A DNA stretch of 64,000 nucleotides from Thermoproteales archaeon (GCA_021161825.1 JAGGZW010000130.1:1503-65502); one strand, 5' to 3'. Positions 4,081 through 64,000 are shown, counted from the first letter of the stretch. A program made the numbers and translations. The notes: generated by a model from the sequence alone, not told the origin.

Positions 4081-5010
4081 ATGAGAATTTTAGTTACAGG
4101 AGCTGCAGGATTCATAGGTTCACACATTACTTTGGAATTTTTTAAGAGAGGCTACGAAGTTATCGCTATTGACAATTTTTCCAGATCAAATTTTTACAAC
4201 TTTAAATTCGTTAGAGAGCAAGGAATTGAAATTATAAAAGGTGATATAAGAGATGCAGTATTTTTGGAAAAGCTTCCTCGGGTTGACTGGATAATTCATG
4301 CGGCTGCATTAATAAATGTGGAAGAATCGGTAGAGAAGCCAAGTTTATATTACGACATTAATGTAAGGGGAACGATAATACTTTTCAAAAAGTTCTATGA
4401 GAAAGGTACGAGAAACTTTCTCTATATTAGTTCAGCCGCAGTTTACGGCGAGCCAAAATATTTACCAGTTGATGAAAAACATCCAGTAGATCCCATATCG
4501 CCATATGGTGCTAGCAAAGCATCAGCGGAATTCTTTATAAAATCGTTCTATCATAGCCTAAGCGACTTCAATTACGTTATTGTGAGGCCTTTCAACGTTT
4601 ACGGTCCAGGTCAGAGTGGAGAATACGCTGGTGTTATAGCAAGATTTATTGAAAGAATTTTACAGGGTAAATCCCCCATTATTTTTGGAGATGGTTTACA
4701 AACTAGAGATTTTATCCACGTAGATGATGTTGCTAGAGCTATAATAACGATAGTAGAGAAAAATAGATTAAACGAAGTCTTCAATATAGCAACAGGAGTG
4801 CCGCGAAGGATTAGAGACCTCGCATATGAAATAATTAAGCTTGCAAATGCGCAATTAGAGCCTACATATCTACCTCCTAAGCCAGGAGATATTGTACATA
4901 GTTACGCTATACCTGCTAAAATAATGAATTTAGGTTGGAAACCGGTTATAGATTTTAGTGAAGGCTTACAGGACGTTTTAAAATGGGCCAGATCGGAAAT
5001 TTCTACCTAA
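4081..5010 (+). CDS. NAD-dependent epimerase/dehydratase (UDP-glucose 4-epimerase-like)
   Basis: N-terminal Rossmann motif VTGAAGFIGSH and catalytic YGASK (YxxxK) of the extended SDR family. Confidence 0.85.
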   Translation: MRILVTGAAGFIGSHITLEFFKRGYEVIAIDNFSRSNFYNFKFVREQGIEIIKGDIRDAVFLEKLPRVDWIIHAAALINVEESVEKPSLYYDINVRGTIILFKKFYEKGTRNFLYISSAAVYGEPKYLPVDEKHPVDPISPYGASKASAEFFIKSFYHSLSDFNYVIVRPFNVYGPGQSGEYAGVIARFIERILQGKSPIIFGDGLQTRDFIHVDDVARAIITIVEKNRLNEVFNIATGVPRRIRDLAYEIIKLANAQLEPTYLPPKPGDIVHSYAIPAKIMNLGWKPVIDFSEGLQDVLKWARSEIST

Positions 5011-6750
5011 TCATCGTCGCCCATATCTTCTATATAAAAACGCTAAAGCCACTATTATGAAAACGACTGTAATAAGGCTTAAATAGGCTATTTCTTCTCG
5101 TGGTTTAACATTAACTCTGAGCGATCGAGCTATTGTAGCCGACGCGGATTCTATCTTAAATTCTACGAAATAATCTCCACTTGGTATCTCTGGTTCTACG
5201 TTAACGACTAATGTAAATCGTCCCGTCTCACCAGGCATTAATAAAGGAATGTCCTTAGGCTCTACGTTAACTTTTATTTTTTGCGGAGTATCCGTGATAA
5301 TGATCCTAAGATTGCTTATGACTGTATGACCTGAATTTTTAACATCGACGTAAAACTTTTGTTTTGATCCAGCAGTTGTCTCTAAATAAAAATTCTCAGT
5401 GAGAACCTTTAACTCATATCTTCCGAGTATGTTAATTCCCAAATTTATCTTAGCCTCGCTAGTCTCACCTTTTGCCGTGAGGGTAAACTGAACAAAGCCA
5501 GGCTCAGTTCCCGTGGGAATAAGGATATTTATCTCTAACTCCTCTTCACTACCACTTTCGAGGAACAGCTGGTTTACTATATTTCCCTTTTTATCTCTTA
5601 TCGTAAAAGTGTAAGTTTCCGGCAAATCCTTCACATCAAATGAAACTATTGTGCCTGAAAGCCCTTCATTTCTAACTTTTATTTTAATATTGGCCATGTT
5701 TCCAGCATATGCGCTTGTAAAAGGATGTGTTGAGAAGAGTTGAATATCGTCGTAACCTTCGACCACATGAATAGTGAAATCTATCGTCGAGCATACTCCT
5801 AATCCGCAAGCTCGCAAGGTAATGATTTCCTTGCCGTATTTTGCATCGGGGGGGATTCTAACTTTTATGAAAGCAGACACGCTTTCATCTGGTTCGAGAA
5901 AAACTGTTGTAAATGACCTATTTGAATTATCTCTTATGTCTGTTCTCCAATTCTGGGGAGCATCAACTGAAAGTTCTAAAACCGCTCTTTCACCTAGATT
6001 ATTTACGATCTTAAAGTTGAAAATAACTTGACTATCTCTTAGGGCTGTCGCATCTATGAACTCAGCTTCTATCAATTTCCAGTCCTTTTTCTCTACTATA
6101 ACTTCTATAGGAGCTTTATGAACGAAAAAACCCCTTATGATTAAAGTAATGTTATAGCTTCCCAGTGCATTTCTTGGAACTTGAACTTTTAAATTAAAGG
6201 TTTCTCTGGCTCCAGGAGTTATCGAAAAACCTTCAATTCTTAGGCCGTTACTTGAAACAAACTGGGCACGCCAATCTGTTGGTGTTTTTATTTCAACAAG
6301 GCATGTTTCCTTTTCATATCCATCGTTCATAATTAATACTGGAATTTGTAAGAATTCCCCTTGTTCAGTTCTAAATATATTCCCACCGGGTATGATCTTT
6401 ATCGAGTAATCGAGTATAATCTCGCCCATCCAGTAAGTTAAGGCAGTTTTCGAGGAAAGATCTAGCTTAATTTCCTTAACTTCGTAGCCATGCGCTTGAA
6501 ATCTTACTAAAACAACTTCTCGTTCAACATAGAAACTAAATGTTCCTTCATTTCCGGTTTCTGTTTGGAAAATAAGGACATCATTGCGATATATTTTGAC
6601 CTGAGCATCTGATATTGGATTTCCGTTTATATCGATAAGCTTTCCCCTGACATTAATTTTACCATTATATGAGTAAAATGTGGGTATAGTGAATAATATT
6701 ATAAATATTTCAATTACTAATAGACTTGTATTTCTCCTCAAAAACATCAC
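5011..6750 (-). CDS. membrane-anchored surface protein with carboxypeptidase-regulatory-like and repeated Ig-like (CARDB/NEW3-like) modules
   Basis: N-terminal hydrophobic signal/anchor and C-terminal TM (ITVVFIIVALAFLY) followed by RRYGRR. About four ~100-aa repeats end in patterns such as GSYNITLIIRG, GKEIITLRA, GFVQFTLTAKG and GDYFVEFKIES. The stop abuts the stop of the convergent epimerase gene (5010/5011). Confidence 0.6.
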   Translation of the reverse strand: MMFLRRNTSLLVIEIFIILFTIPTFYSYNGKINVRGKLIDINGNPISDAQVKIYRNDVLIFQTETGNEGTFSFYVEREVVLVRFQAHGYEVKEIKLDLSSKTALTYWMGEIILDYSIKIIPGGNIFRTEQGEFLQIPVLIMNDGYEKETCLVEIKTPTDWRAQFVSSNGLRIEGFSITPGARETFNLKVQVPRNALGSYNITLIIRGFFVHKAPIEVIVEKKDWKLIEAEFIDATALRDSQVIFNFKIVNNLGERAVLELSVDAPQNWRTDIRDNSNRSFTTVFLEPDESVSAFIKVRIPPDAKYGKEIITLRACGLGVCSTIDFTIHVVEGYDDIQLFSTHPFTSAYAGNMANIKIKVRNEGLSGTIVSFDVKDLPETYTFTIRDKKGNIVNQLFLESGSEEELEINILIPTGTEPGFVQFTLTAKGETSEAKINLGINILGRYELKVLTENFYLETTAGSKQKFYVDVKNSGHTVISNLRIIITDTPQKIKVNVEPKDIPLLMPGETGRFTLVVNVEPEIPSGDYFVEFKIESASATIARSLRVNVKPREEIAYLSLITVVFIIVALAFLYRRYGRR

Positions 6751-6883
6751 ATTTTCACAAAGACTCTATATTAATAAGAATTTCTCTTGTAAAAGGCTAG
6801 GCTAATAATATTATACAATATGACAAAATTTAGTTATCTTCTAAGGGAAAGTTTTAATATAAACTTTAATTAGACTACCCAGT

Positions 6884-7915
6884 ATGAAGTATTTAAAAGA
6901 CCCTAAAGGCAAAAAGATAAAGCTTTTTTGTTTTATGATCATTGCAATAACGATCCTGACTTTATCTTTAGCCGTAGTTGAAACATACAAAGAATCTTCA
7001 AGTTTAATAGCTAATGTGAACATAAAAACTTCACAGCTGGACTCTGTAATTCAAATAGAAGTTTTACTTGTAGCTACTCTAGCGGGATTTTTTGGTGCAT
7101 TGATGGGGCTTGGCGGAGGAGTAATAATTGTTCCAGTTTTAACTTCTATATTTAATTTGAAAATACACGAGGCAATAGCCATCAGCATAATCGGCGTTGT
7201 AGCTACAAGTATTTCCGGAGGCTCGTCTTATATTGCACAGAGAATTACAAATATACGTTTAGCAATATTTCTTGAAACCTCTACAACATTAGGAGCATTT
7301 TTGGGCGCATTACTCACTTTAATTATGCCCGGAAAATTTCTCTATATTATATTCTCGGTTTTTGCCTTTTACGTAAGCCTTGCACAACTCCACTCAATTA
7401 AAGAAGAAGTTAAGAAAATAAGTGTTAGGGGCTTTAGTAATGTCCTGCCCGATGCAGTTTCAAAATATCTAAATCTATCAGGCGAGTATTTTGATGAACG
7501 GGAAAAGATAAAGGTAGAATATGTGGTTAGAGGATCTATAATTGGTTGGTTAATAGCGTTTATTGCAGGTGTAGGCTCCGGAATGCTTGGTATAGGTGGT
7601 GGCTTTTTGAAAGTTTCGGCTATGAACCTTTTTATGAACATACCGCTTAAAGTTGCTATAGCTACCAGCAAGTTTATGATATGTATCACTGCTGCAACGA
7701 GTGCTGTAATATACTATGTTTCAGGCGTCGTGAGGCTTGACCTTGTAGCTCCACTAGCTGTGGGAACCACAATAGGCGCAACATTGGGATCTAGAGTAAT
7801 GAATAAGTTTAAAATTAAATGGCTTAAACTCATTTTTGCCTTTATAATGTTTTACCTTGGGTATGCAATGTTGCGTAAAGGACTGCTGCTCATTTTCGGG
7901 TTAAGTTTGCCCTAG
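6884..7915 (+). CDS. TauE/SafE (DUF81) family anion exporter
   Basis: Polytopic membrane protein with duplicated glycine motifs GLGGGVIIVPVL and GIGGGFLKV, characteristic of the family. Confidence 0.7.
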   Translation: MKYLKDPKGKKIKLFCFMIIAITILTLSLAVVETYKESSSLIANVNIKTSQLDSVIQIEVLLVATLAGFFGALMGLGGGVIIVPVLTSIFNLKIHEAIAISIIGVVATSISGGSSYIAQRITNIRLAIFLETSTTLGAFLGALLTLIMPGKFLYIIFSVFAFYVSLAQLHSIKEEVKKISVRGFSNVLPDAVSKYLNLSGEYFDEREKIKVEYVVRGSIIGWLIAFIAGVGSGMLGIGGGFLKVSAMNLFMNIPLKVAIATSKFMICITAATSAVIYYVSGVVRLDLVAPLAVGTTIGATLGSRVMNKFKIKWLKLIFAFIMFYLGYAMLRKGLLLIFGLSLP

Positions 7916-7928
7916 GAGGCGATTACAT

Positions 7929-8231
7929 TTGGATATTAATAAGATAGTGTATTGGGTTCTCATAACCGGAATGCTGGTAGGCAATGCTTTATTAGCTACC
8001 AGCGTAACGCTGAACATTCTTTTTCAAGATTCTAAGACTTTATCCATTATGATCGCGTTCCTAGGAACTGCTGTTCTAATAGCTACCCCATATGTTACAA
8101 TCGCGTCTATTATTTTAGCTTCTGCAATAAATAAAGATTATAAACTACTTGTGATATCTCTGATTATTCTATTCGTGATGGTGAGCAGCTTATTGTTTGG
8201 CCTTATCTTCCGCAAAACTCCAAAAAGCTAG
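7929..8231 (+). CDS. small 3-4 TM membrane protein (DUF1634-like TauE partner, tentative)
   Basis: TTG start 14 nt after the TauE stop. Entirely hydrophobic helices. Small membrane partners of this kind often follow TauE genes. The family name is from memory. Confidence 0.4.
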   Translation: MDINKIVYWVLITGMLVGNALLATSVTLNILFQDSKTLSIMIAFLGTAVLIATPYVTIASIILASAINKDYKLLVISLIILFVMVSSLLFGLIFRKTPKS

Positions 8232-8316
8232 TACTAGAAAAGTTTAATTTGAAATATTTTATTTAACTCTGAACTTTACCTAGGAATAATTTAGCTTTTA
8301 TACATAAATCCTGTAA

Positions 8317-8425
<109 letters not shown>

Positions 8426-8474
8426 TTATTTACTAAAAATAGTTAGAGTTTTTAAATTTATCATAACTACTTTT

Positions 8475-9203
<729 letters not shown>

Positions 9204-9268
9204 TTATTTAAACTTACGAAACTATTAAAATGAAAAGATTTTTTTGATATTATATTATTTTATGACCT

Positions 9269-10120
9269 ATGAAAGTATTAGGAGTGGTCTTTAAAGGCTA
9301 TAATTCTGGGATAATCAAATTTGTAACTGAAATCATAGACTTTTTGCAAAATACAGGTTTCGAGGTTTATCTTGAAAAAAACCAAGCAGATAAAATAGGT
9401 AAACAAGAATTAAGTATAAAATCTTTTGATTCCAAGGATTTAGATGCATTAGTTGTTATAGGCGGCGACGGGACGATACTAAAAGTATTTCACGAGATTG
9501 CAAGAGATATTCCATTAATTCCGGTAAATAGCAATTCTCTTGGATTTTTTTATGATCTGAACAGAGACAATTATCAGAAAGCTTTTAAGTTAATAATGGA
9601 AGGAAATTACTATATTAAAACTTTTAAAACAGGAAGCTTGACTGTGGACAGTATAAAAATTTCTGATTTTCTAAACGAAATTGCTATCTATAACGTTAAG
9701 AAGGGGAAAATGTTCATCTTTAAACTTTTTAGGAATGGAGAATTGATAACTGGGGGACGATGCGACGGCGCGATAATAGCTACTATGCTAGGTTCAACAG
9801 CTTATTCTCTTGCTCAAGGAGGCCCTATAATCGACTCGGAACTTGATGCCCTCGTGTATACACCTATTTCACCTTTCACACAATTTCTAAAACCTATAGT
9901 TTTTAGCTCTGAATCTTCACTTGAGGTCCAAAATTTTGTTGATTCTCTGATACTTGTAGATGGAATATTACAATATGAGGTAAAAAAAGATAGCAAAATG
10001 ATGATCACATTATCTGGAAAGAACATTAGTTTCGTTAAAATCAAAGCTTTTGAAAGAAACTTTTTTGCTAAAATCAAAAGACGTTTGTTTGATGAGCCTT
10101 TTACATCAAAGTTTTTCTAA
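9269..10120 (+). CDS. nadK: NAD kinase
   Basis: GGDGT motif (VVIGGDGTILK), NEIAI, and DGAIIATMLGSTAYSLAQGGPI. Confidence 0.85.
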   Translation: MKVLGVVFKGYNSGIIKFVTEIIDFLQNTGFEVYLEKNQADKIGKQELSIKSFDSKDLDALVVIGGDGTILKVFHEIARDIPLIPVNSNSLGFFYDLNRDNYQKAFKLIMEGNYYIKTFKTGSLTVDSIKISDFLNEIAIYNVKKGKMFIFKLFRNGELITGGRCDGAIIATMLGSTAYSLAQGGPIIDSELDALVYTPISPFTQFLKPIVFSSESSLEVQNFVDSLILVDGILQYEVKKDSKMMITLSGKNISFVKIKAFERNFFAKIKRRLFDEPFTSKFF

Positions 10121-19990: not shown

Positions 19991-20075
19991 TGCGGGGGCG
20001 GGGATTCGAACCCCGGTAGGCCTTCGCCAACGGATCTTGAGTCCGCCCCCTTTGACCTAGCTCGGGCACCCCCGC
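19991..20075 (-). tRNA. tRNA-Leu(CAA), no intron
   Basis: Acceptor GCGGGGG/CCCCCGC, D arm GCCCGAGCTAGGTCAAAGGGGGC, anticodon arm GCGGA-CTCAAGA-TCCGT, long variable arm. Confidence 0.9.
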
Positions 20076-24599: not shown

Positions 24600-24715
24600 G
24601 CGGGGGTGCCCGAGCTAGGTCAAAGGGGGCGGACTTAAGATCTCGAGCAAATAGGGCCGAGAAATAGGAAATCCGTTGGGGAAGCCCTGCCCGGGTTCGA
24701 ATCCCGGCCCCCGCA
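24600..24715 (+). tRNA. tRNA-Leu(UAA) with ~31-nt canonical intron
   Basis: Same body as the other Leu genes. Anticodon arm is GCGGA-CTTAAG[ATCTCGAGCAAATAGGGCCGAGAAATAGGAA]A-TCCGT. Confidence 0.9.
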
Positions 24716-24758: not shown

Positions 24759-25514
24759 GTGCAGAATTTAGAAGCTAAATTAAGACTGATTGGTCTATCT
24801 CCTAATGAGATTAAGGCTTATCTCGCGTTGGTGACTCACGGTGGACTAACTGCGTTAGAGCTTAGTGAAAGGACAGGCATACCATCTTCCAAGATATATA
24901 ATGTATTGAAAAAGTTAAGAGAAAGAAACTGGATTATAGTGAAACAAGGACGCCCCTCACTTTATTATCCAGTTCCTCCTATTGAAGCATGGGAATCTAC
25001 TAGGAAAAAGATAATATCGGAGCTTGACGAAGTGGAGAATACCGTTATTGCTGAAATACAACACCTGTATGAAACGACCGCTGTTGAACGGGAATTCATG
25101 CTAGGGTCGTTGTATATAGTTTATGGGTTAGAAACTATCATAGATAGCATAATAGAGATATTAGAGAAAAAATGTAGAGGTTCCATAATGGTGGCGATGC
25201 CTTTTGAGGCAATATTGAATAACGAAAAATTGGTAGAGAAAATTAAATGGTTATCACAAAATTGGGATTTAAAATTGCTAATCAGTAATCAGCTTCAAAA
25301 TTTAATTTATAAAAAATTTAGAGATGCCAGAATGAGCGTAAGAACACGAGACAAATTATTTGGTGGCGGCGTAATATGCGATGAAGTAATATTTATTGTC
25401 GAAAATAGAGACTTGTTTATAGGCTTAAGATCGGGGCTAGACTTTTTCGTTAATCTTGCAAAAATATATTTTGAATATCTCTGGAAGGACAGCGAAATTT
25501 TGTTATTGTCCTAG
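24759..25514 (+). CDS. TrmB-family transcriptional regulator
   Basis: GTG start. N-terminal wHTH LGLSPNEIKAYLALVTHGGLTALELSERTGIPSSKIYNVLKKL. Confidence 0.8.
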   Translation: MQNLEAKLRLIGLSPNEIKAYLALVTHGGLTALELSERTGIPSSKIYNVLKKLRERNWIIVKQGRPSLYYPVPPIEAWESTRKKIISELDEVENTVIAEIQHLYETTAVEREFMLGSLYIVYGLETIIDSIIEILEKKCRGSIMVAMPFEAILNNEKLVEKIKWLSQNWDLKLLISNQLQNLIYKKFRDARMSVRTRDKLFGGGVICDEVIFIVENRDLFIGLRSGLDFFVNLAKIYFEYLWKDSEILLLS

Positions 25515-26696
25515 AATATCCTTGTAAGACAATATTACAAGTTTTTCTGGTATTCTCGTAGCATCGCCAATTCTAGCACCCACTAAAATCTTTGCATCTT
25601 TCGAATACGCTGCATCCACTATTCTCTGCGTAATTATACCATCAAATATGACTGCATAGACAGAGTCTATCTCTTCTTTTAGTAACGATACTAAGTCCCG
25701 TACCGGCACCTCCTTTACAAGCTCCCATTTATCATTATATATTCGCGCTAACAGGGTTCCCTTTAAAGATTCTATATTTTTTATAATATGATCTGGTATT
25801 TTCACCTCAAGCGCCTCTACCTCTGTCATTGCTTCTTCACGTACTTTTTCTGTAGATGCTTTTTCCTTTGAGATGCTTTCAAAATATTCTTCAGCTGGCA
25901 GTTTATTACGTAAGCATTTAGCAATTTCTTTCCCCGTTAGTTCTTCGACTTCTCGCCCAGGTGGGGCGCGTGCCACGTAGTCAATGTCAACAGCTGAGGC
26001 TAAATTTTTAAGTATAAGCTCGCCTCCTCTATCGCCATCGACAAAAGCTATTGTGGTTTTCTTCTTACTTAGTTCCACGATAGTCTTCGGCACAGTAGCT
26101 CCTCCTACGGCTATAACGTTTTTATATCCATGTTTAAGCAAATTAACGACATCGGCTCTTCCTTCTACTATAATAACAGTATCAGCGCGATCCACATCCG
26201 GTCCTGCCGACAATCCTTCAGGACCATATTTTATGACCTCAGCTTCCCTAATCGCTTTCAATACCTCCTCGGTAAGTTCTCTAGTTTCAGGCATCTCTTC
26301 TTTAGACCATTTTCTAAGGATTTCTTTTGCTCGTTCTATTATTTTCTTTCTTTTCTCCGCTCGCACATCTTCAATTCTAAAGACCTTCACCTTAGCCGAA
26401 TAGGGACCTACCTTGTCTACGATCTCTATAGCAGCTGCAATTAGAGCTGTTTCAGCTCTGTCTAAATTTGATGGAATAATAATAGTTCCTCGAATACGAC
26501 CACTTTTATTTTCTAGTTTCACGTCAATTCTCCCTATCCTGCCACTTTTTCTAAGCTCTCTTAGATCAAGATCTTCTCCTAGAATATTCTCCGTTTGCCC
26601 AAAAATCGCTCCTATAATATCCGGTTTTTCAACTATTCCATCCACTTCTATAGATGCATAGATTACGTATTTCGCGTTTACTGGAGGACCACCCAT
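25503..26696 (-). CDS. dnaG: archaeal DnaG primase-like protein (TOPRIM; exosome-associated type)
   Basis: Conserved N-terminus YVIYASIEVDGIVEKPDIIGAIFGQTE, TOPRIM core IIVEGRADV and DGDRGGELI. Confidence 0.9.
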   Translation of the reverse strand: MGGPPVNAKYVIYASIEVDGIVEKPDIIGAIFGQTENILGEDLDLRELRKSGRIGRIDVKLENKSGRIRGTIIIPSNLDRAETALIAAAIEIVDKVGPYSAKVKVFRIEDVRAEKRKKIIERAKEILRKWSKEEMPETRELTEEVLKAIREAEVIKYGPEGLSAGPDVDRADTVIIVEGRADVVNLLKHGYKNVIAVGGATVPKTIVELSKKKTTIAFVDGDRGGELILKNLASAVDIDYVARAPPGREVEELTGKEIAKCLRNKLPAEEYFESISKEKASTEKVREEAMTEVEALEVKIPDHIIKNIESLKGTLLARIYNDKWELVKEVPVRDLVSLLKEEIDSVYAVIFDGIITQRIVDAAYSKDAKILVGARIGDATRIPEKLVILSYKDILGQ

Positions 26697-26779
26697 TGCT
26701 TGTCACCTCTGTTATATGCCAAGTACTCATTTCTTCAAAACCAAAAATGGTATAACGCTATAAAAAAGTAATCATTATA

Positions 26780-26877
26780 GACGTGCCTATCGCCGTCCGG
26801 CACACACGCTCTCCTGGCTAGGCGGTACAACGCCTTAGGCTCCGCGTGCTCTCCTCGGACGGCAGATTCGGCACGTC
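26780..26877. ncRNA. 98-nt GC-rich structured RNA candidate (H/ACA-like extended hairpin; strand unresolved)
   Basis: Nested helices GACGTGCC/GGCACGTC, GCCGTCCG/CGGACGGC, CACGC/GCGTG and AGGCG/CGCCT, with internal loops. TATA-like boxes and T-tracts are present for either orientation. GA-rich internal loops (K-turn-like) exist only in the minus sense. Confidence 0.4.
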
Positions 26878-26974
26878 TTTTATGAATAGACGTATGCAAT
26901 CACTAATAATCTTTGCGTCTTCCTTACGGGATAAATTGATAAAGTTAATATTTGATTAAAGCATAGTTATCAAT

Positions 26975-27043
26975 GCCGGGAGGCGGTCTCTGTCCGAGAC
27001 TGCAAGGCATGCGATGACAGACAGAATACCCACTCCCGGCACA
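26975..27043 (+). ncRNA. H/ACA box sRNA candidate (single hairpin)
   Basis: Lower stem GCCGGGAG/CTCCCGGC followed directly by ACA at 27041-27043. Pocket strands are GCGGTC and ATACCCA. Upper stem is TCTGTC/GACAGA. Apical GAUGA faces GAGA (K-turn-like). ACA lies 15 nt from the upper stem. TATA-like TTGATTAAAG lies ~22 nt upstream. Confidence 0.55.
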
Positions 27044-27101
27044 TTCTAAAGGGAGGAAGATATAAAAGAGAAAATAATGATTTAATGTTTCGGATGGAAG
27101 C

Positions 27102-27311
27102 ATGGTAAGGCCTGAAGAAATTTTCGGCGTTAACGCAGGCAAAGTTTGGGAGGCTTTGAGAGGGGAAGATGGTTTAACAGCTAAAGAAATAGCACAAAAA
27201 ACAGGACTAAAGATAACCGAAGTTTACGCCGCTCTCGGCTGGCTTGGTAGAGAGGGGAAAATAGAAATTATAAAAAATCGCAAAAGACTGCGTTTTCGAT
27301 TACTTGAGTAG
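27102..27311 (+). CDS. small winged-helix protein (DUF2582-like)
   Basis: 69 aa. AGKVWEAL...LTAKEIAQKTGLKITEVYAALGWLGREGKI is a wHTH pattern. Confidence 0.55.
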   Translation: MVRPEEIFGVNAGKVWEALRGEDGLTAKEIAQKTGLKITEVYAALGWLGREGKIEIIKNRKRLRFRLLE

Positions 27312-33226: not shown

Positions 33227-33333
<107 letters not shown>

Positions 33334-44818: not shown

Positions 44819-44913
44819 GGGCCCGTAGCTTAGTAAGGTAGAGCACCCGGCTCTTAATTTAGACACCCAAAGGAGAGACCGGGGGGTCGCGGGTTCAAAT
44901 CCCGCCGGGCCCG
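44819..44913 (+). tRNA. tRNA-Lys(CUU) with ~21-nt canonical intron
   Basis: GGGCCCG-TA-GCTT..GAGC-A-CCCGG-CTCTTA[ATTTAGACACCCAAAGGAGAG]A-CCGGG-GGGTC-GCGGG-TTCAAAT-CCCGC-CGGGCCC-G. Confidence 0.9.
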
Positions 44914-45336: not shown

Positions 45337-45433
45337 GCCGGGGTAGCTCAGCTCGGTAGAGCATCCGGCTGTTAAAAGTATACATTGCTTTACAGAGACC
45401 GGATGGTCGCGGGTTCAAGTCCCGCCCCCGGCG
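45337..45433 (+). tRNA. tRNA-Asn(GUU) with ~23-nt intron
   Basis: GCCGGGG-TA-GCTC..GAGC-A-TCCGG-CTGTTAA[AAGTATACATTGCTTTACAGAGA]CCGGA-TGGTC-GCGGG-TTCAAGT-CCCGC-CCCCGGC-G. Confidence 0.9.
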
Positions 45434-51375: not shown

Positions 51376-51473
51376 GCCCCGGTAGCTCAGGTGGTGGAGC
51401 ACCGCCTTGGTAAGGCGGGGGAACAGCTGCTAGCAGCTGTCTCGAAACGCGGGTTCAAGTCCCGCCCGGGGCT
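51376..51473 (+). tRNA. tRNA-Thr(GGU) with a 25-nt non-canonical intron in the variable loop
   Basis: GCCCCGG-TA-GCTC..GAGC-A-CCGCC-TTGGTAA-GGCGG-GGG[AACAGCTGCTAGCAGCTGTCTCGAA]AC-GCGGG-TTCAAGT-CCCGC-CCGGGGC-T. Removing 51422-51446 leaves a 5-nt variable loop. Confidence 0.85.
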
Positions 51474-59287: not shown

Positions 59288-60706
59288 TTACTCGTTTAGA
59301 ATACAAGTAATTAAGTTTTCAATATTCGCCCAAGATTTTTCATCGTCGATACGTGATTTTATGTAATTTATCTTGCTCATTATAAGCTTATAAAAATCGC
59401 TGGTTATCATTTTTCTATTTAGCATTTCTTCTAATTCTTTTTGATCAATTATTTTCGCTTTTCCACTTGCTTCTGCAACAACATCGATTCCTAAGTCTAC
59501 ATACCAATAAATGCCTGAAGACTTCCTTTCAATTGGTAAATTTACGTTAACATACATTCCTTTTAAATCTCCCCTACAACTGTAATATACGTGTGGCAGG
59601 AAAATAGAGCCGACTTTAATATAGGAAAAAATAATATCTCCTTTTCTTTTTTCAATGCCTAAACCGTCATATAAGCCATTAGAACGGACTTCTCGTCTTA
59701 TTTTAAGATACTGATCATTTTTCAGCACAATTTCACCATGTATTCTTATAATATTCCCGTTTACCCGTTCGTGCTCTAATATAATTTTATTTTCCACTGT
59801 GCTGTGTAATCTATTCCATGCTCTACTCTCGACACGAGATTTGTCGCAACAGTCAAGAACATACTCTAACCAATCAAAAACATCTGAACTTATATCTTGT
59901 AATGATTTAAAGTAATGATGCCCCTTTAACGTACTAACTATTTCATTCCTAATTCCATCAAGTTTAAGTTTATCTTCGAGTGAGAAAATGATTTCGAAAA
60001 TTGCATCACCTTTGGACACGAAACATGGCGGTTCGTCTTCTAGCTTGGCAATTTTTAAAGCTTTCCTTTTTAAACTTTCGAGTTCGGCAATGATATCCTC
60101 GAATTTGCCAAAGTTTGCGTTGCTTCTCCAACGTATCCCCCAGTTTTCCAATTTTAAGAATGCACTAAGCGTCATCAACTCTTTTCTTCTATTCTTGTTT
60201 TTTATATGTCTGCTAAAGGTGACTCTACCGTATTGTATTAGTCTTGCATATTTTCCTGAAACAGCTATTCCATATCTCAATAATGGAGGCTCGGATAAAA
60301 ATGGTTTTTTTACATGTACAAATACGATATCTCCTTCCCTTAACTTACCATTATATTCTAGAAAACCATAACCTCCTGGAATTTCAACAATCCATAAACC
60401 CCTTTCCTTTCTAAGTATTTTTCCTTTAAAACAATCATATATTCCATAGGAGTATTCTTTGAAGATACTACACGTAAAGGCTTTTTTAAAAATAGAAGCT
60501 AATTTTTTTACAGTTTCTTTATCTCCAATGATTACTATACCCTTTTTATCCTCTCTATCTTTTACAGTTACATCTGCTGGTATAGTTTCTCTTTTAAGAG
60601 AAAATCTTTTGGCAACTATCTCGCCTGGTTGAGTAATATTAAAACCGTTAGAAAGAAAAAGGTTAGTTAGTGCCGTGGCATATATGCCGCGTACTCTAAT
60701 AAACAT
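59288..60706 (-). CDS. FAU-1 / RNase E-G-like RNA-binding protein
   Basis: MFIRVRGIYATALTNLFLSNGFNITQP matches the conserved FAU-1 N-terminus. ~470 aa with a DUF402-like C-terminal half. Confidence 0.7.
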   Translation of the reverse strand: MFIRVRGIYATALTNLFLSNGFNITQPGEIVAKRFSLKRETIPADVTVKDREDKKGIVIIGDKETVKKLASIFKKAFTCSIFKEYSYGIYDCFKGKILRKERGLWIVEIPGGYGFLEYNGKLREGDIVFVHVKKPFLSEPPLLRYGIAVSGKYARLIQYGRVTFSRHIKNKNRRKELMTLSAFLKLENWGIRWRSNANFGKFEDIIAELESLKRKALKIAKLEDEPPCFVSKGDAIFEIIFSLEDKLKLDGIRNEIVSTLKGHHYFKSLQDISSDVFDWLEYVLDCCDKSRVESRAWNRLHSTVENKIILEHERVNGNIIRIHGEIVLKNDQYLKIRREVRSNGLYDGLGIEKRKGDIIFSYIKVGSIFLPHVYYSCRGDLKGMYVNVNLPIERKSSGIYWYVDLGIDVVAEASGKAKIIDQKELEEMLNRKMITSDFYKLIMSKINYIKSRIDDEKSWANIENLITCILNE

Positions 60707-61513: not shown

Positions 61514-61605
61514 CGCCCCGGCCGGGATTTGAACCCGGGTTCTGGCGGGATCTGCGCTTAAAGCTTGACAGCCGCCCATACTCGACCTGGCTATACGACC
61601 GGGGC
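61514..61605 (-). tRNA. tRNA-Asp(GUC) with ~16-nt intron
   Basis: GCCCCGG-TC-GTAT..GTAT-G-GGCGG-CTGTCA[AGCTTTAAGCGCAGAT]C-CCGCC-AGAAC-CCGGG-TTCAAAT-CCCGG-CCGGGGC-G. Lies ~90 nt downstream of the 23S 3' region on the same strand. Confidence 0.85.
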
Positions 61606-62058: not shown

Positions 62059-62093
<35 letters not shown>

Positions 62094-62127: not shown

Positions 62128-62816
62128 TTCAAGGGGGAGAGCCGTGGCCGGATAAGTGTTTAACCAGGCTTACATCGTAATTTAAGGAAATTATATTTTT
62201 CAACAATCTTGGGGTGAATGGGGTTGAATATCTGAATGAATTTTTCGATGTTTTCCCATCCTCTTATCCTTACCTTATATATTGTTTTTCTATTCCCTTT
62301 TCCTAGATGTTTTGTTACTGTAACGTTTACTCCTTTTCTCTTGATGTATTCCGCAATGCTGTAAATGAGTTCTTTGTTTGTGTTCGCTACTTCCAAGACT
62401 ATTCTGCATTTTTTATCTATATATACCGTTCCTTCAGCATCTGTCAGTCCTGTTACAAAGCTTTTAACTGGTTTTCTTTGTCTAATCTTTATTCTTTTCT
62501 GAATTTCCTCGTATAGGGATTTAGATGTTACTTGTAATCGGTAATAGTTCTTCTTTTTACGATAGATATGAGCATTTATCTTGAATATCTTTTGTATTAT
62601 TGTTTTCAGTTCTTTAAGGTATTCATAGCTATTGTCGTATATGTAGATGTAGTGAGTGTTTCCTTGTCTATAGAGTGTTCCATCCCCTATTATTACTCCT
62701 GCTAAGTAGTTGTAGGTTGTTCTTATCCTACACATATTCACCCCTATTAGAGTAAGCAAACGTATTTAATGCAGTTCATATGTGATCGTGATAACTTTCG
62801 GCCACGGCTCTCCCCA
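62128..62816 (-). mobile_element. archaeal (BHB-spliced) rRNA intron, 689 nt, encoding a LAGLIDADG endonuclease
   Basis: Outer helix GCAGCCCC/GGGGCTGC, central 4-bp helix CAAG/CTTG, and 3-nt bulges GGT and AAT. A 17-bp inner helix is GGGGAGAGCCGTGGCCG/CGGCCACGGCTCTCCCC. The joined exons read CAAGGG|TGGGGCTGCCCGCCCATTAAAGG, colinear with bacterial CAAGGGTATGGCTGTTCGCCATTTAAAG. Boundaries +/- 2 nt. Confidence 0.85.
62160..62759 (-). CDS. double-motif LAGLIDADG homing endonuclease (I-DmoI-like architecture)
   Basis: Two dodecapeptide motifs, YLAGVIIGDGTLY and FVTGLTDAEGTVY, about 95 aa apart. TTG at 62759 or ATG at 62735. Entirely inside the intron. Confidence 0.85.
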   Translation of the reverse strand: MLTLIGVNMCRIRTTYNYLAGVIIGDGTLYRQGNTHYIYIYDNSYEYLKELKTIIQKIFKINAHIYRKKKNYYRLQVTSKSLYEEIQKRIKIRQRKPVKSFVTGLTDAEGTVYIDKKCRIVLEVANTNKELIYSIAEYIKRKGVNVTVTKHLGKGNRKTIYKVRIRGWENIEKFIQIFNPIHPKIVEKYNFLKLRCKPG

Positions 62817-62865
62817 CCCTTGGGGGCTGCTGCACCCCCAGGATGGGAAGAGCCGACATCGATGT

Positions 62866-62906
<41 letters not shown>

Positions 62907-63428
62907 TCTGTTATCCCCGGGGTAACTTTTCTGTCATGCCCGGCCCCCACCGGAGGGGGCACGAGCGTTCGCTAGGCCGCGGTTTCCCGGCCGGACCCGT
63001 TATGTTCCGGGGTCCGGTCAAGCCGGCTTTTGCCCTTGCACTCTACGGCGGAGCTCTGACCCGCCTGAGCCGACCTTTGGGCGCCCGTGTTACCTTTTCG
63101 CGGGCGTGCCGCCCCAGCCAAACCGCCCACCTGACGCTGTCCCCCCGGGTTCTCCCCGGGGGTAAGGCCTCCGGGCTGCGGTGAGTGGTGTTTCATTGGC
63201 GCCTCCCCCACCCCCGGAGGGGTGGGTTCACTGGCTCCCACCTACGCTACGCACCGCAGCCCGGAGGCCAACGCCAGGCTGCGGTAAAGCTCCACGGGGT
63301 CTTATCGCCCTGCGGGGGGTTGCCGGCCTGTGCACCGGCTCCGTGTATTCACGGGGCCCCGGGCCAGGACAGTGGGGACCTCGTTGATCCATTCATGCGC
63401 GCCGGAACTCACCCGGCAAGGCATTTGG

Positions 63429-63938
63429 CTACCTTTCTCCCGGGAGGTCCCGCCGCCTGGCGATATGTGAATTAATAATTGTGATTATTTCTTCAAGACT
63501 CCTTTTTCTACGAGCTTTTGAGCTGAGGCTTGATAATTCATATGCTTTAGAAACCAGTTCTTTGAGTTTAATATGGTTTTTATGTAGCCCTTTACTGAGT
63601 GAAAGAACTATTTCTCTGAACATTAGGTATTGTTCTTTCTTTATACTTAGCAGCTCTATATAATTATCAAGGAACGGAATTAATTTCTCGGTGAGTTCAG
63701 CCATATTATCTATTATGAGTAAGTATAGGTGTTTTTGTCCAGACTTCCTGATTATTCTTCCTGCATTGATTATTTTGCTTATTAGTTCTAATGGTTCCTT
63801 TTTTGCTTGTGTAATGCTGAATACTGGGTCTAGCCTTACTCCGTATGCTAGGTCTTTTTGAATTTTTATACTTACTGAGAAACTGGCTTCTGCATCTATG
63901 AATCCCAACACATAACCAATTATTAGGTCTTTGTTCAT
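63429..63938 (-). CDS. single-motif LAGLIDADG homing endonuclease (homodimer type)
   Basis: N-terminal IIGYVLGFIDAEASFSV is the only dodecapeptide motif. 169 aa. The last sense codon and the TAG stop use the downstream exon bases GGTAG. Confidence 0.8.
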   Translation of the reverse strand: MNKDLIIGYVLGFIDAEASFSVSIKIQKDLAYGVRLDPVFSITQAKKEPLELISKIINAGRIIRKSGQKHLYLLIIDNMAELTEKLIPFLDNYIELLSIKKEQYLMFREIVLSLSKGLHKNHIKLKELVSKAYELSSLSSKARRKRSLEEIITIINSHIARRRDLPGER

Positions 63939-64000
63939 TTCCTAACCCCTGGCTACCAATTTACAGCCAGGAGCTAATAAGCTTTACTTTTAGCCAGGCG
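63434..64000 (-). mobile_element. second archaeal rRNA intron (5' boundary beyond the window end)
   Basis: AT-rich ORF-bearing insert ending ...CCCGGGAGAAA immediately before the exon GGTAGCCAAATGCC. The universally conserved upstream exon block (..ACTCTCTTAA) is absent from the window, so the 5' junction lies past 64000. Confidence 0.7.

Follow-up and report, generated by a model that had tools for sequence, protein, structure and literature searches.

The window examined here, a 64,000-nt stretch of DNA from a Thermoproteales archaeon (GCA_021161825.1, JAGGZW010000130.1:1503-65502), is archaeal and carries a partial 23S rRNA gene, an archaeal RNase P RNA and nine tRNA genes (133-218, 8318-8425, 19991-20075, 24600-24715, 33227-33310, 44819-44913, 45337-45433, 51376-51473 and 61514-61605). 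Each of these tRNA genes spans 84-116 nt, implying introns in most or all of them, which fits an origin in the Thermoproteota. Near the middle of the window, dnaG on the minus strand (25503-26696) diverges from a gene for a DUF2582 winged-helix (wHTH) protein on the plus strand (27102-27311), which is followed by cysS. The divergent intergenic region is 405 nt long, and the gene callers called no gene within it. It contains a 69-nt candidate H/ACA hairpin at 26975-27043 (+), the structure of which was read from the sequence. The original prediction located this hairpin downstream of dnaG; it lies upstream, between the divergent dnaG and DUF2582 genes. The nearest DnaG proteins in species-representative genomes were only 58-64% identical and came from uncultured Thermoproteota MAGs labeled Thermoproteales, Thermoprotei, Methanomethylicota and Nezhaarchaeota. 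The window's own species was found in several metagenome assemblies, where the neighboring proteins were 99-100% identical. A motif scan of the window detected no Cbf5-like (TruB catalytic) motif.

The same intergenic region holds a second conserved hairpin of about 100 nt (26779-26878, + as modeled), 96 nt upstream of the H/ACA hairpin and directly upstream of dnaG in divergent orientation. Its fold has a z-score of -6.6, compensatory changes were found in 10 of its 21 pairs, and its invariant motifs are the unpaired ACAC, GCUC and GCUCUCU and an apical hairpin, GGCG-GUACAA-CGCC. Homologues were located in L001 (3684-3792), L002 (3810-3922), L003 (3783-3895), L008 (3843-3955), L005 (3768-3880) and L007 (1704-1809), and this element still adjoins dnaG where the H/ACA gene has moved. 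A covariance model of the element matched Methanomethylicota loci and, weakly, loci labeled Nezhaarchaeota or Hadarchaeota. We found no K-turn, H box or ACA in it and no Rfam match at E<=10 across 26650-27150. Comparing its two strands and scanning it for bipartite complementarity to rRNA gave no clear signal. The element may belong to a new family of sRNAs, or it may be a long, structured leader of dnaG.

The H/ACA hairpin is built on a lower stem, P1, in which GCCGGGAG (26975-26982) forms eight perfect pairs with CUCCCGGC (27033-27040; CTCCCGGC in DNA letters), and the ACA box (27041-27043) follows immediately 3' of this stem. Above P1 the pocket is formed by a 5' strand, PS1 (GCGGUC, 26983-26988), and a 3' strand, PS2 (AUACCCA, 27026-27032). 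The upper stem, P2, pairs UCUGUC (26989-26994) with GACAGA (27020-27025). The distance from ACA to P2 is 15 nt, made up of the 7 nt of PS2 and the 8 nt of the P1 3' strand. The 8-bp stem with ACA, the 6+7-nt pocket, the 6-bp upper stem and the 15-nt spacing that had been described for the hairpin were thus all present. Folding gave an MFE of -32.7 kcal/mol (z = -4.2), and none of 200 shuffled sequences folded as well. In the MFE structure three base pairs close the pocket, joining GGU of PS1 to ACC of PS2; such partial self-pairing is a weak point of the guide reading, and an unavoidable one because the two target arms are complementary to each other.

Above P2 the hairpin carries a K-turn. 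The non-bulged strand reads C and then G-A (26995-26997, positions 7-9 above the pocket), the apical stem has six layers and a 3-nt loop (26998-27012), and the bulged strand (27013-27019) consists of a 3-nt GAU bulge, the sheared G-A and CA running into P2. The layout was read against two orthologues, L002 and L003, in which P2a-C-GA-[6-bp apical stem, 3-nt loop]-AAU-GA-NN-P2b is a standard K-turn with the apical stem as C-stem, P2 continuing the NC stem, tandem G:A pairs and a 3-nt bulge. The window has the same ungapped layout with GAU as its bulge, and the non-bulged strand is identical in all three RNAs. At the level of sequence, the 3-nt bulge positions and both GA dinucleotides agree among the window, L002 and L003. 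The window C-stem contains two mismatched inner layers (A.G and C.U), for which reason ViennaRNA favors a 4-bp stem in a shifted register. Across the family, covariation was seen in five of the six C-stem layers, the first pair is always G-C, and (G/A)AUGA is retained in all orthologues. The GA motifs that had been placed at the apex belong to an internal K-turn capped by a 6-bp stem and not to an apical K-loop. An alternative upper-stem register, CUGUC/GACAG (27016-27020), abolishes the K-turn and is unsupported by L002 and L003. Counted from the base of P2, the distal G:A pair is 9 layers up on the 5' strand and 10 on the 3' strand, in agreement with published rules that put the GA pairs 9-10 above the pocket (PMC7075261) and give a productive GA stem of 10 layers (PMC4652768). 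In the notation of PMC4652768 the fold type is 10/7/8, within the 15-nt class of the 10/6/9 family.

Searching 45 dnaG loci with the 69-mer by nhmmer and blastn returned no homologue, and orthologues were instead detected by a motif and stem scan together with reading of the syntenic region by eye. The L002 orthologue was seen on reading; the scan confirmed it and added L003. These orthologues lie at or near the syntenic dnaG position in relatives whose DnaG proteins are 80% and 59% identical. The window, L002 and L003 sequences align without gaps, the K-turn, the pocket core (including GGUC of PS1) and ACA are identical, and 9 of 20 pairs have changed on both sides with 96.7% of cells still paired, which is the kind of compensatory change in dnaG-adjacent orthologues that had been proposed as a check. 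A covariance model and one metagenome pattern scan yielded 14 further copies, and an alignment of 10 distinct family sequences (A4) was assembled. In A4, 95% of pair cells were paired versus 34-46% when the partners were slid by 1-3 columns, double compensatory changes occurred in 12 of 20 pairs, and all three helices covaried. P1 had 98.8% of its cells paired and double changes in three of its eight pairs, one of which (alignment columns 7/61) appears as AU, GC, UA and CG. P2 was paired in every cell (100%), with double changes in four of six pairs. Conservation of the stems in relatives, on which the original prediction had staked the hairpin, is thus borne out.

The metagenome search pattern contained GGUC, CGAG, AUGA, AUACCC and ACA, so the invariance of these motifs among the metagenome matches is by construction, and the independent evidence on invariance of the pocket and K-turn comes only from the window, L002 and L003; stem covariation was not imposed by the pattern. 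Two strain polymorphisms were observed among L046, L050, L051, L073 and L075. A27022G converts a P2 U-A pair to U.G with pairing kept, and A27032G leaves the target U still paired, as G.U. ACA directly follows P1 in the window, L002, L003, L006 and L016, and in L005 one C intervenes. L005 accordingly has 16 nt between ACA and the upper stem, against 15 nt in L006, L016 and every member of the clade. One family member (L061 549-618 / L071 859-928) has a lower stem of 7 bp with the spacing to ACA still at 15 nt.

A BRE/TATA-like element, AAAG followed by TTAATATT, was found at 26941-26952 (+), -34 to -23 from the first base of the hairpin, a position suggesting a promoter function. Elements of the type AAAG(G/T)TAATAT lie at the same distance in L074, L062 and L070, and A/T-rich equivalents are present in L002, L003 and L059. 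Archaeal BRE/TATA geometry would start transcription at or just before P1, and the hairpin would therefore be transcribed from its own promoter.

The location of the hairpin, on the DUF2582 strand and 59 nt ahead of that gene, together with the ability of its pocket to pair partly with itself, could also suggest that it is not a guide and that a terminator or a 5' leader of DUF2582/cysS resembles an H/ACA RNA by chance. We consider such a cis-element extremely unlikely. The hairpin is retained in L062, L070 and L074, where DUF2582 is absent, it lies 0.9-2.6 kb away from dnaG in L003- and L059-type genomes, and a second TATA-like AT-rich stretch, AAGATATAAAAGAG, separates it from the DUF2582 gene, so that it behaves as an independent gene. 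Furthermore, the unpaired nucleotides of the K-turn, pocket and ACA do not differ among the window, L002 and L003, whereas all the stems covary, a pattern that marks H/ACA RNAs and not terminators.

Rfam models run at their gathering scores over the whole window gave no H/ACA family match, and none was obtained at E<=10 in 26650-27150 (families there include, e.g., RF00058, RF00060, RF00064 and RF00065). Together, the architecture, the covarying orthologues, the promoter-like element and the lack of an Rfam match point to a genuine H/ACA sRNA outside the described families. The proposed identity as a single-hairpin guide has held up, as the architecture follows the published rules (PMC7075261, PMC4652768) and covariation extends over 10 orthologues, and we conclude that the hairpin at 26975-27043 is very likely an archaeal box H/ACA guide sRNA.

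The predicted target is 5'-UGGGUUUAGACCGU-3' in the 23S rRNA (62080-62093, minus strand), corresponding to E. coli 2580-2593, in the part of the peptidyl-transferase centre where a linker joins helices 90 and 93. The E. coli numbering is taken from the established landmarks U2585 and A2602; the E. coli segment was matched in a RefSeq genome copy with homopolymer indels, and the numbering rests on the landmarks because of these errors. The complementarity was as first described, and the position given for it (62069-62082) was off by 11 nt. ACCCA of PS2 pairs with UGGGU (5 bp) and GCGGUC of PS1 with GACCGU (6 bp, one G-U), 11 bp in total. Three target nucleotides (U-U-A) and two guide nucleotides are left unpaired, the top two nucleotides of PS2 (AU) having no Watson-Crick partner in the simplest model; the pairing can be drawn alternatively with a U.U mismatch or a bulged U. 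The original wording, suggestive rather than ideal, stands for this fit, which carries modest statistics.

Target scans covered the complete 16S and 23S rRNAs of the same species (contig L052, whose complete rRNA operon has 16S at 4758-6261 and 23S at 6413-9445), the 64-kb window and contig L052. In a scan with relaxed geometry and tolerance for mismatches, the guides of the window, L002 and L003 all scored best at LSU 2677-2690. In a stricter scan for contiguous pairs the best site for L003 was elsewhere, at LSU 1673. With relaxed geometry, 74 of 3000 shuffled pockets scored as well as the window guide, which gives p ~0.025 and only modest significance for this guide alone; L002 and L003 form only 9 bp at the target, which taken alone is indistinguishable from chance. 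The original prediction had allowed that a better target of canonical geometry might lie elsewhere, and searching the 16S, the 23S, the window and L052 for such a site (UGGGUAU-UN-GACC, U-N being left unpaired and no guide base passed over) revealed none that was credible. The best canonical match, SSU 797, had mismatches in both arms and only 3 bp to PS1 for L002 and L003. We also considered extending PS1 by opening the first P2 pair so that U26989 could pair with A2587 of the target, and rejected this because it works for the window only, L002 and L003 carrying G there.

The variation in the pocket, its register relative to ACA, the duplex energies and the diverged guides described below all strengthen the case for this target. 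Position 1 of PS1, which faces a target U, varies only between A and G in A4. The last PS2 position, also facing a target U, is A or G in 9 of 10 sequences and C in L061. Purines at these two positions can pair with the target U's, and the pair with E. coli-equivalent U2580 is lost through this C in L061/L071. Base pairing with E. coli-equivalent U2584 falls exactly 13 nt from ACA in nine of nine guides. The arm that pairs 5' of the target U gave duplex energies of -5.5 to -7.8 kcal/mol, with L061 the weakest; these values lie around the reported cutoff of -6 kcal/mol (PMC4652768).

Diverged H/ACA hairpins were also found near dnaG in L005 (3642-3719, +; Methanomethylicota), L006 (2501-2576, +; Nezhaarchaeota) and L016 (143-224, -). 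PS1 in these guides reads CGACGG instead and pairs with CCGUCG two bases further 3', and the best rRNA match of each is the same 23S segment, with 10-12 bp. Their pairing would leave 4-5 target nucleotides unpaired, an unusually open pocket that is conserved in three lineages.

A genuine H/ACA guide could nevertheless serve another substrate, such as a tRNA, a small RNA, an mRNA or several weak sites. The 23S match is non-canonical and of modest significance, with only 9 bp in L002 and L003, the scans were confined to the rRNAs, the window and L052, and Sulfolobus islandicus sR435 uses short duplexes to modify eight sites, some of them in tRNA and CRISPR RNAs (PMC11077068). However, no canonical target was present in the 16S, the 23S, the 64-kb window or L052, this one 23S segment is the shared match of six guide variants that differ in PS1, and the ACA register equals that of a proven guide of Haloferax, leading us to regard a different substrate as unlikely. 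The 23S segment first proposed is the best-supported target, being the top site under relaxed geometry, the shared match of three diverged guides and the site of the Haloferax precedent.

In that precedent, stem-loop 1 (SL1) of Haloferax volcanii sR-h45 directs the formation of Psi2605 at the last U of this UUU (PMC7075261, PMC5029457). Two A's of PS2 hold the preceding two U's, which places the target at a distance of 15 nt from the box (PMC7075261). The comparison was made from the published description. Both RNAs address the same rRNA segment (GGGUUU-A-GACCG, helices 90/93), the third U is 15 nt from the ANA or ACA box in both, and they share a K-turn in the upper stem and a Cbf5-dependent mechanism, which for the window RNA are predicted from its sequence. 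They differ in that sR-h45 is a double hairpin with an H box and the window RNA is a single hairpin with its own putative promoter, and in that Haloferax has a canonical unpaired UA whereas the window pairing leaves three target and two guide nucleotides unpaired. PS2 of the window RNA reads A-U-A rather than AA, so the second target U faces a U. Canonical PS2 pairing, a double hairpin and an H box, the features by which an orthologue of sR-h45 SL1 would be recognized, are absent from the window RNA.

Other archaeal H/ACA guides were compared as well. In Pyrococcus abyssi, Pab35 motif 1 directs Psi2672 (= E. coli 2580) and Pab91 directs Psi2685 (= E. coli 2593) (PMC2377435), using the offset of +92 between the two numberings that is implied by the RluE/RluC/RluB equivalences in that paper. 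These RNAs resemble the window RNA as classic hairpins with a lower stem, ACA and a K-turn or K-loop that address the same 14-nt stretch, but they modify the flanking U's, the first and last of the segment, and not the central UUU. No Psi was reported at the UUU in P. abyssi, where domain V was largely, not completely, probed (PMC2377435), and the Pyrococcus H/ACA models in Rfam gave no match to the window RNA even at E<=10. In S. islandicus only three 23S pseudouridines were reported, none at the UUU, and the neighboring U2724 appears to be m3U (PMC11077068). Both absences count against the predicted modification. The window RNA also resembles S. islandicus sR115 and sR435 and Pyrobaculum sR201 and sR202, single-hairpin classic RNAs of the Thermoproteota that combine ACA and a K-turn with a lower stem of 8-9 bp (PMC11077068, PMC4652768), the targets of which differ (tRNA-Tyr U35, several 16S sites and 23S U2597, = E. 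coli 2457). Many crenarchaeal guides are atypical, without lower stem and ACA, in contrast to the fully classic window family (PMC11077068, PMC4652768).

The 23S gene of the window contains at least two insertions on the minus strand (62128-62811 and ~63436-64000), with LAGLIDADG-type ORFs at 62160-62759 and 63429-63938 (minus). The first intron is inserted ~30 nt 5' of the predicted H/ACA target. In L052, from the same species, the 23S gene is intron-less and 3033 nt long. The exon between the introns (62812-63435) is 81% identical to L052 LSU 2031-2647, whereas identity reaches 98% for the exon on the 3' side of the first intron and 99-100% for the flanking proteins; a chimeric assembly across the rRNA, a divergent second allele or intron-associated co-conversion are possible explanations for the 81% exon. 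A 472-aa DUF402/RNase E/G-like protein of the window (59288-60706) corresponds to two genes (283 + 169 aa) in L052 (10278-11617), where the neighboring beta-CASP gene is also shorter than in the window; the split DUF402 gene probably reflects frameshift errors or strain-level pseudogenisation.

An H/ACA-type RNP might also bind the 23S precursor without modifying it, acting as a chaperone for folding or processing, as the eukaryotic H/ACA snoRNAs snR30/U17 do. We know of no archaeal precedent for such a non-modifying H/ACA chaperone, which counts against this explanation. In its favor, the site lies close behind an intron insertion in the window's 23S, and the conserved pocket, with its extra guide nucleotides and 3-5 unpaired target nucleotides, could be unproductive by the rules of PMC4652768. 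Against it, the same site is modified in haloarchaea, and the top of the pocket is described as able, given an ACA, to accommodate as many as four unpaired bases (De Zoysa 2018, as summarized in PMC7075261), making a role in binding alone very unlikely.

We therefore favor a modifying guide that acts on the UUU of the peptidyl-transferase centre, a reading we hold to be probable, with the modification itself being predicted. The locus would encode a single-hairpin H/ACA sRNA of ~69-72 nt expressed from its own BRE/TATA promoter. L7Ae would bind the K-turn of the upper stem, and the pocket strands would pair with the 23S precursor, ACCCA with UGGGU at 2580-2584 and GCGGUC with GACCGU at 2588-2593. 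U2585-U2586-A2587 would then remain unpaired at the pocket top, within the active site of Cbf5, and one of the two uridines would become pseudouridine. The RNA architecture, the covarying conservation, the promoter-like element and the complementarity kept across diverged guides are observed directly, and from them we infer transcription, protein binding, modification and the choice of U.

By analogy with known guides, the modified base is probably U2586 (62087, minus) or U2585 (62088, minus). At 15 nt from ACA, U2586 has the register of Haloferax Psi2605; U2585, at 14 nt, is the first unpaired U from the 5' side. Work by De Zoysa 2018, as it is summarized in PMC7075261, indicates that the most 5' unpaired U of a run is the one converted and that atypical reactions require ACA. 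Under this rule a window-type guide would convert U2585, while the Haloferax register points to U2586. Together with the 14-nt distance, the rule predicts U2585 for window-, L006- and L016-type guides. We suggest tentatively that the conserved non-canonical pocket, in which a U faces U2585 and 3-5 target nucleotides are unpaired, may pseudouridylate U2585 itself, although on balance we doubt it. U2585, a uridine conserved universally, sits in the heart of the peptidyl-transferase centre, and to our knowledge no organism is known to modify it.

The kind of RNA, its mechanism and even its target region are already known, and how H/ACA RNPs work is unchanged by this family; its sequence matches no Rfam family and the lineage is unstudied. 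As an atypical pocket conserved in nature, the family offers a natural test case for the relaxed guide-target rules derived from mutants. It adds a well-supported H/ACA guide family for little-studied uncultured Thermoproteota, relatives of Methanomethylicia- and Nezhaarchaeota-like MAGs, and, if the prediction is true, these archaea would carry a pseudouridine in the catalytic core of the ribosome at a position where, to date, only haloarchaea are known to have one.
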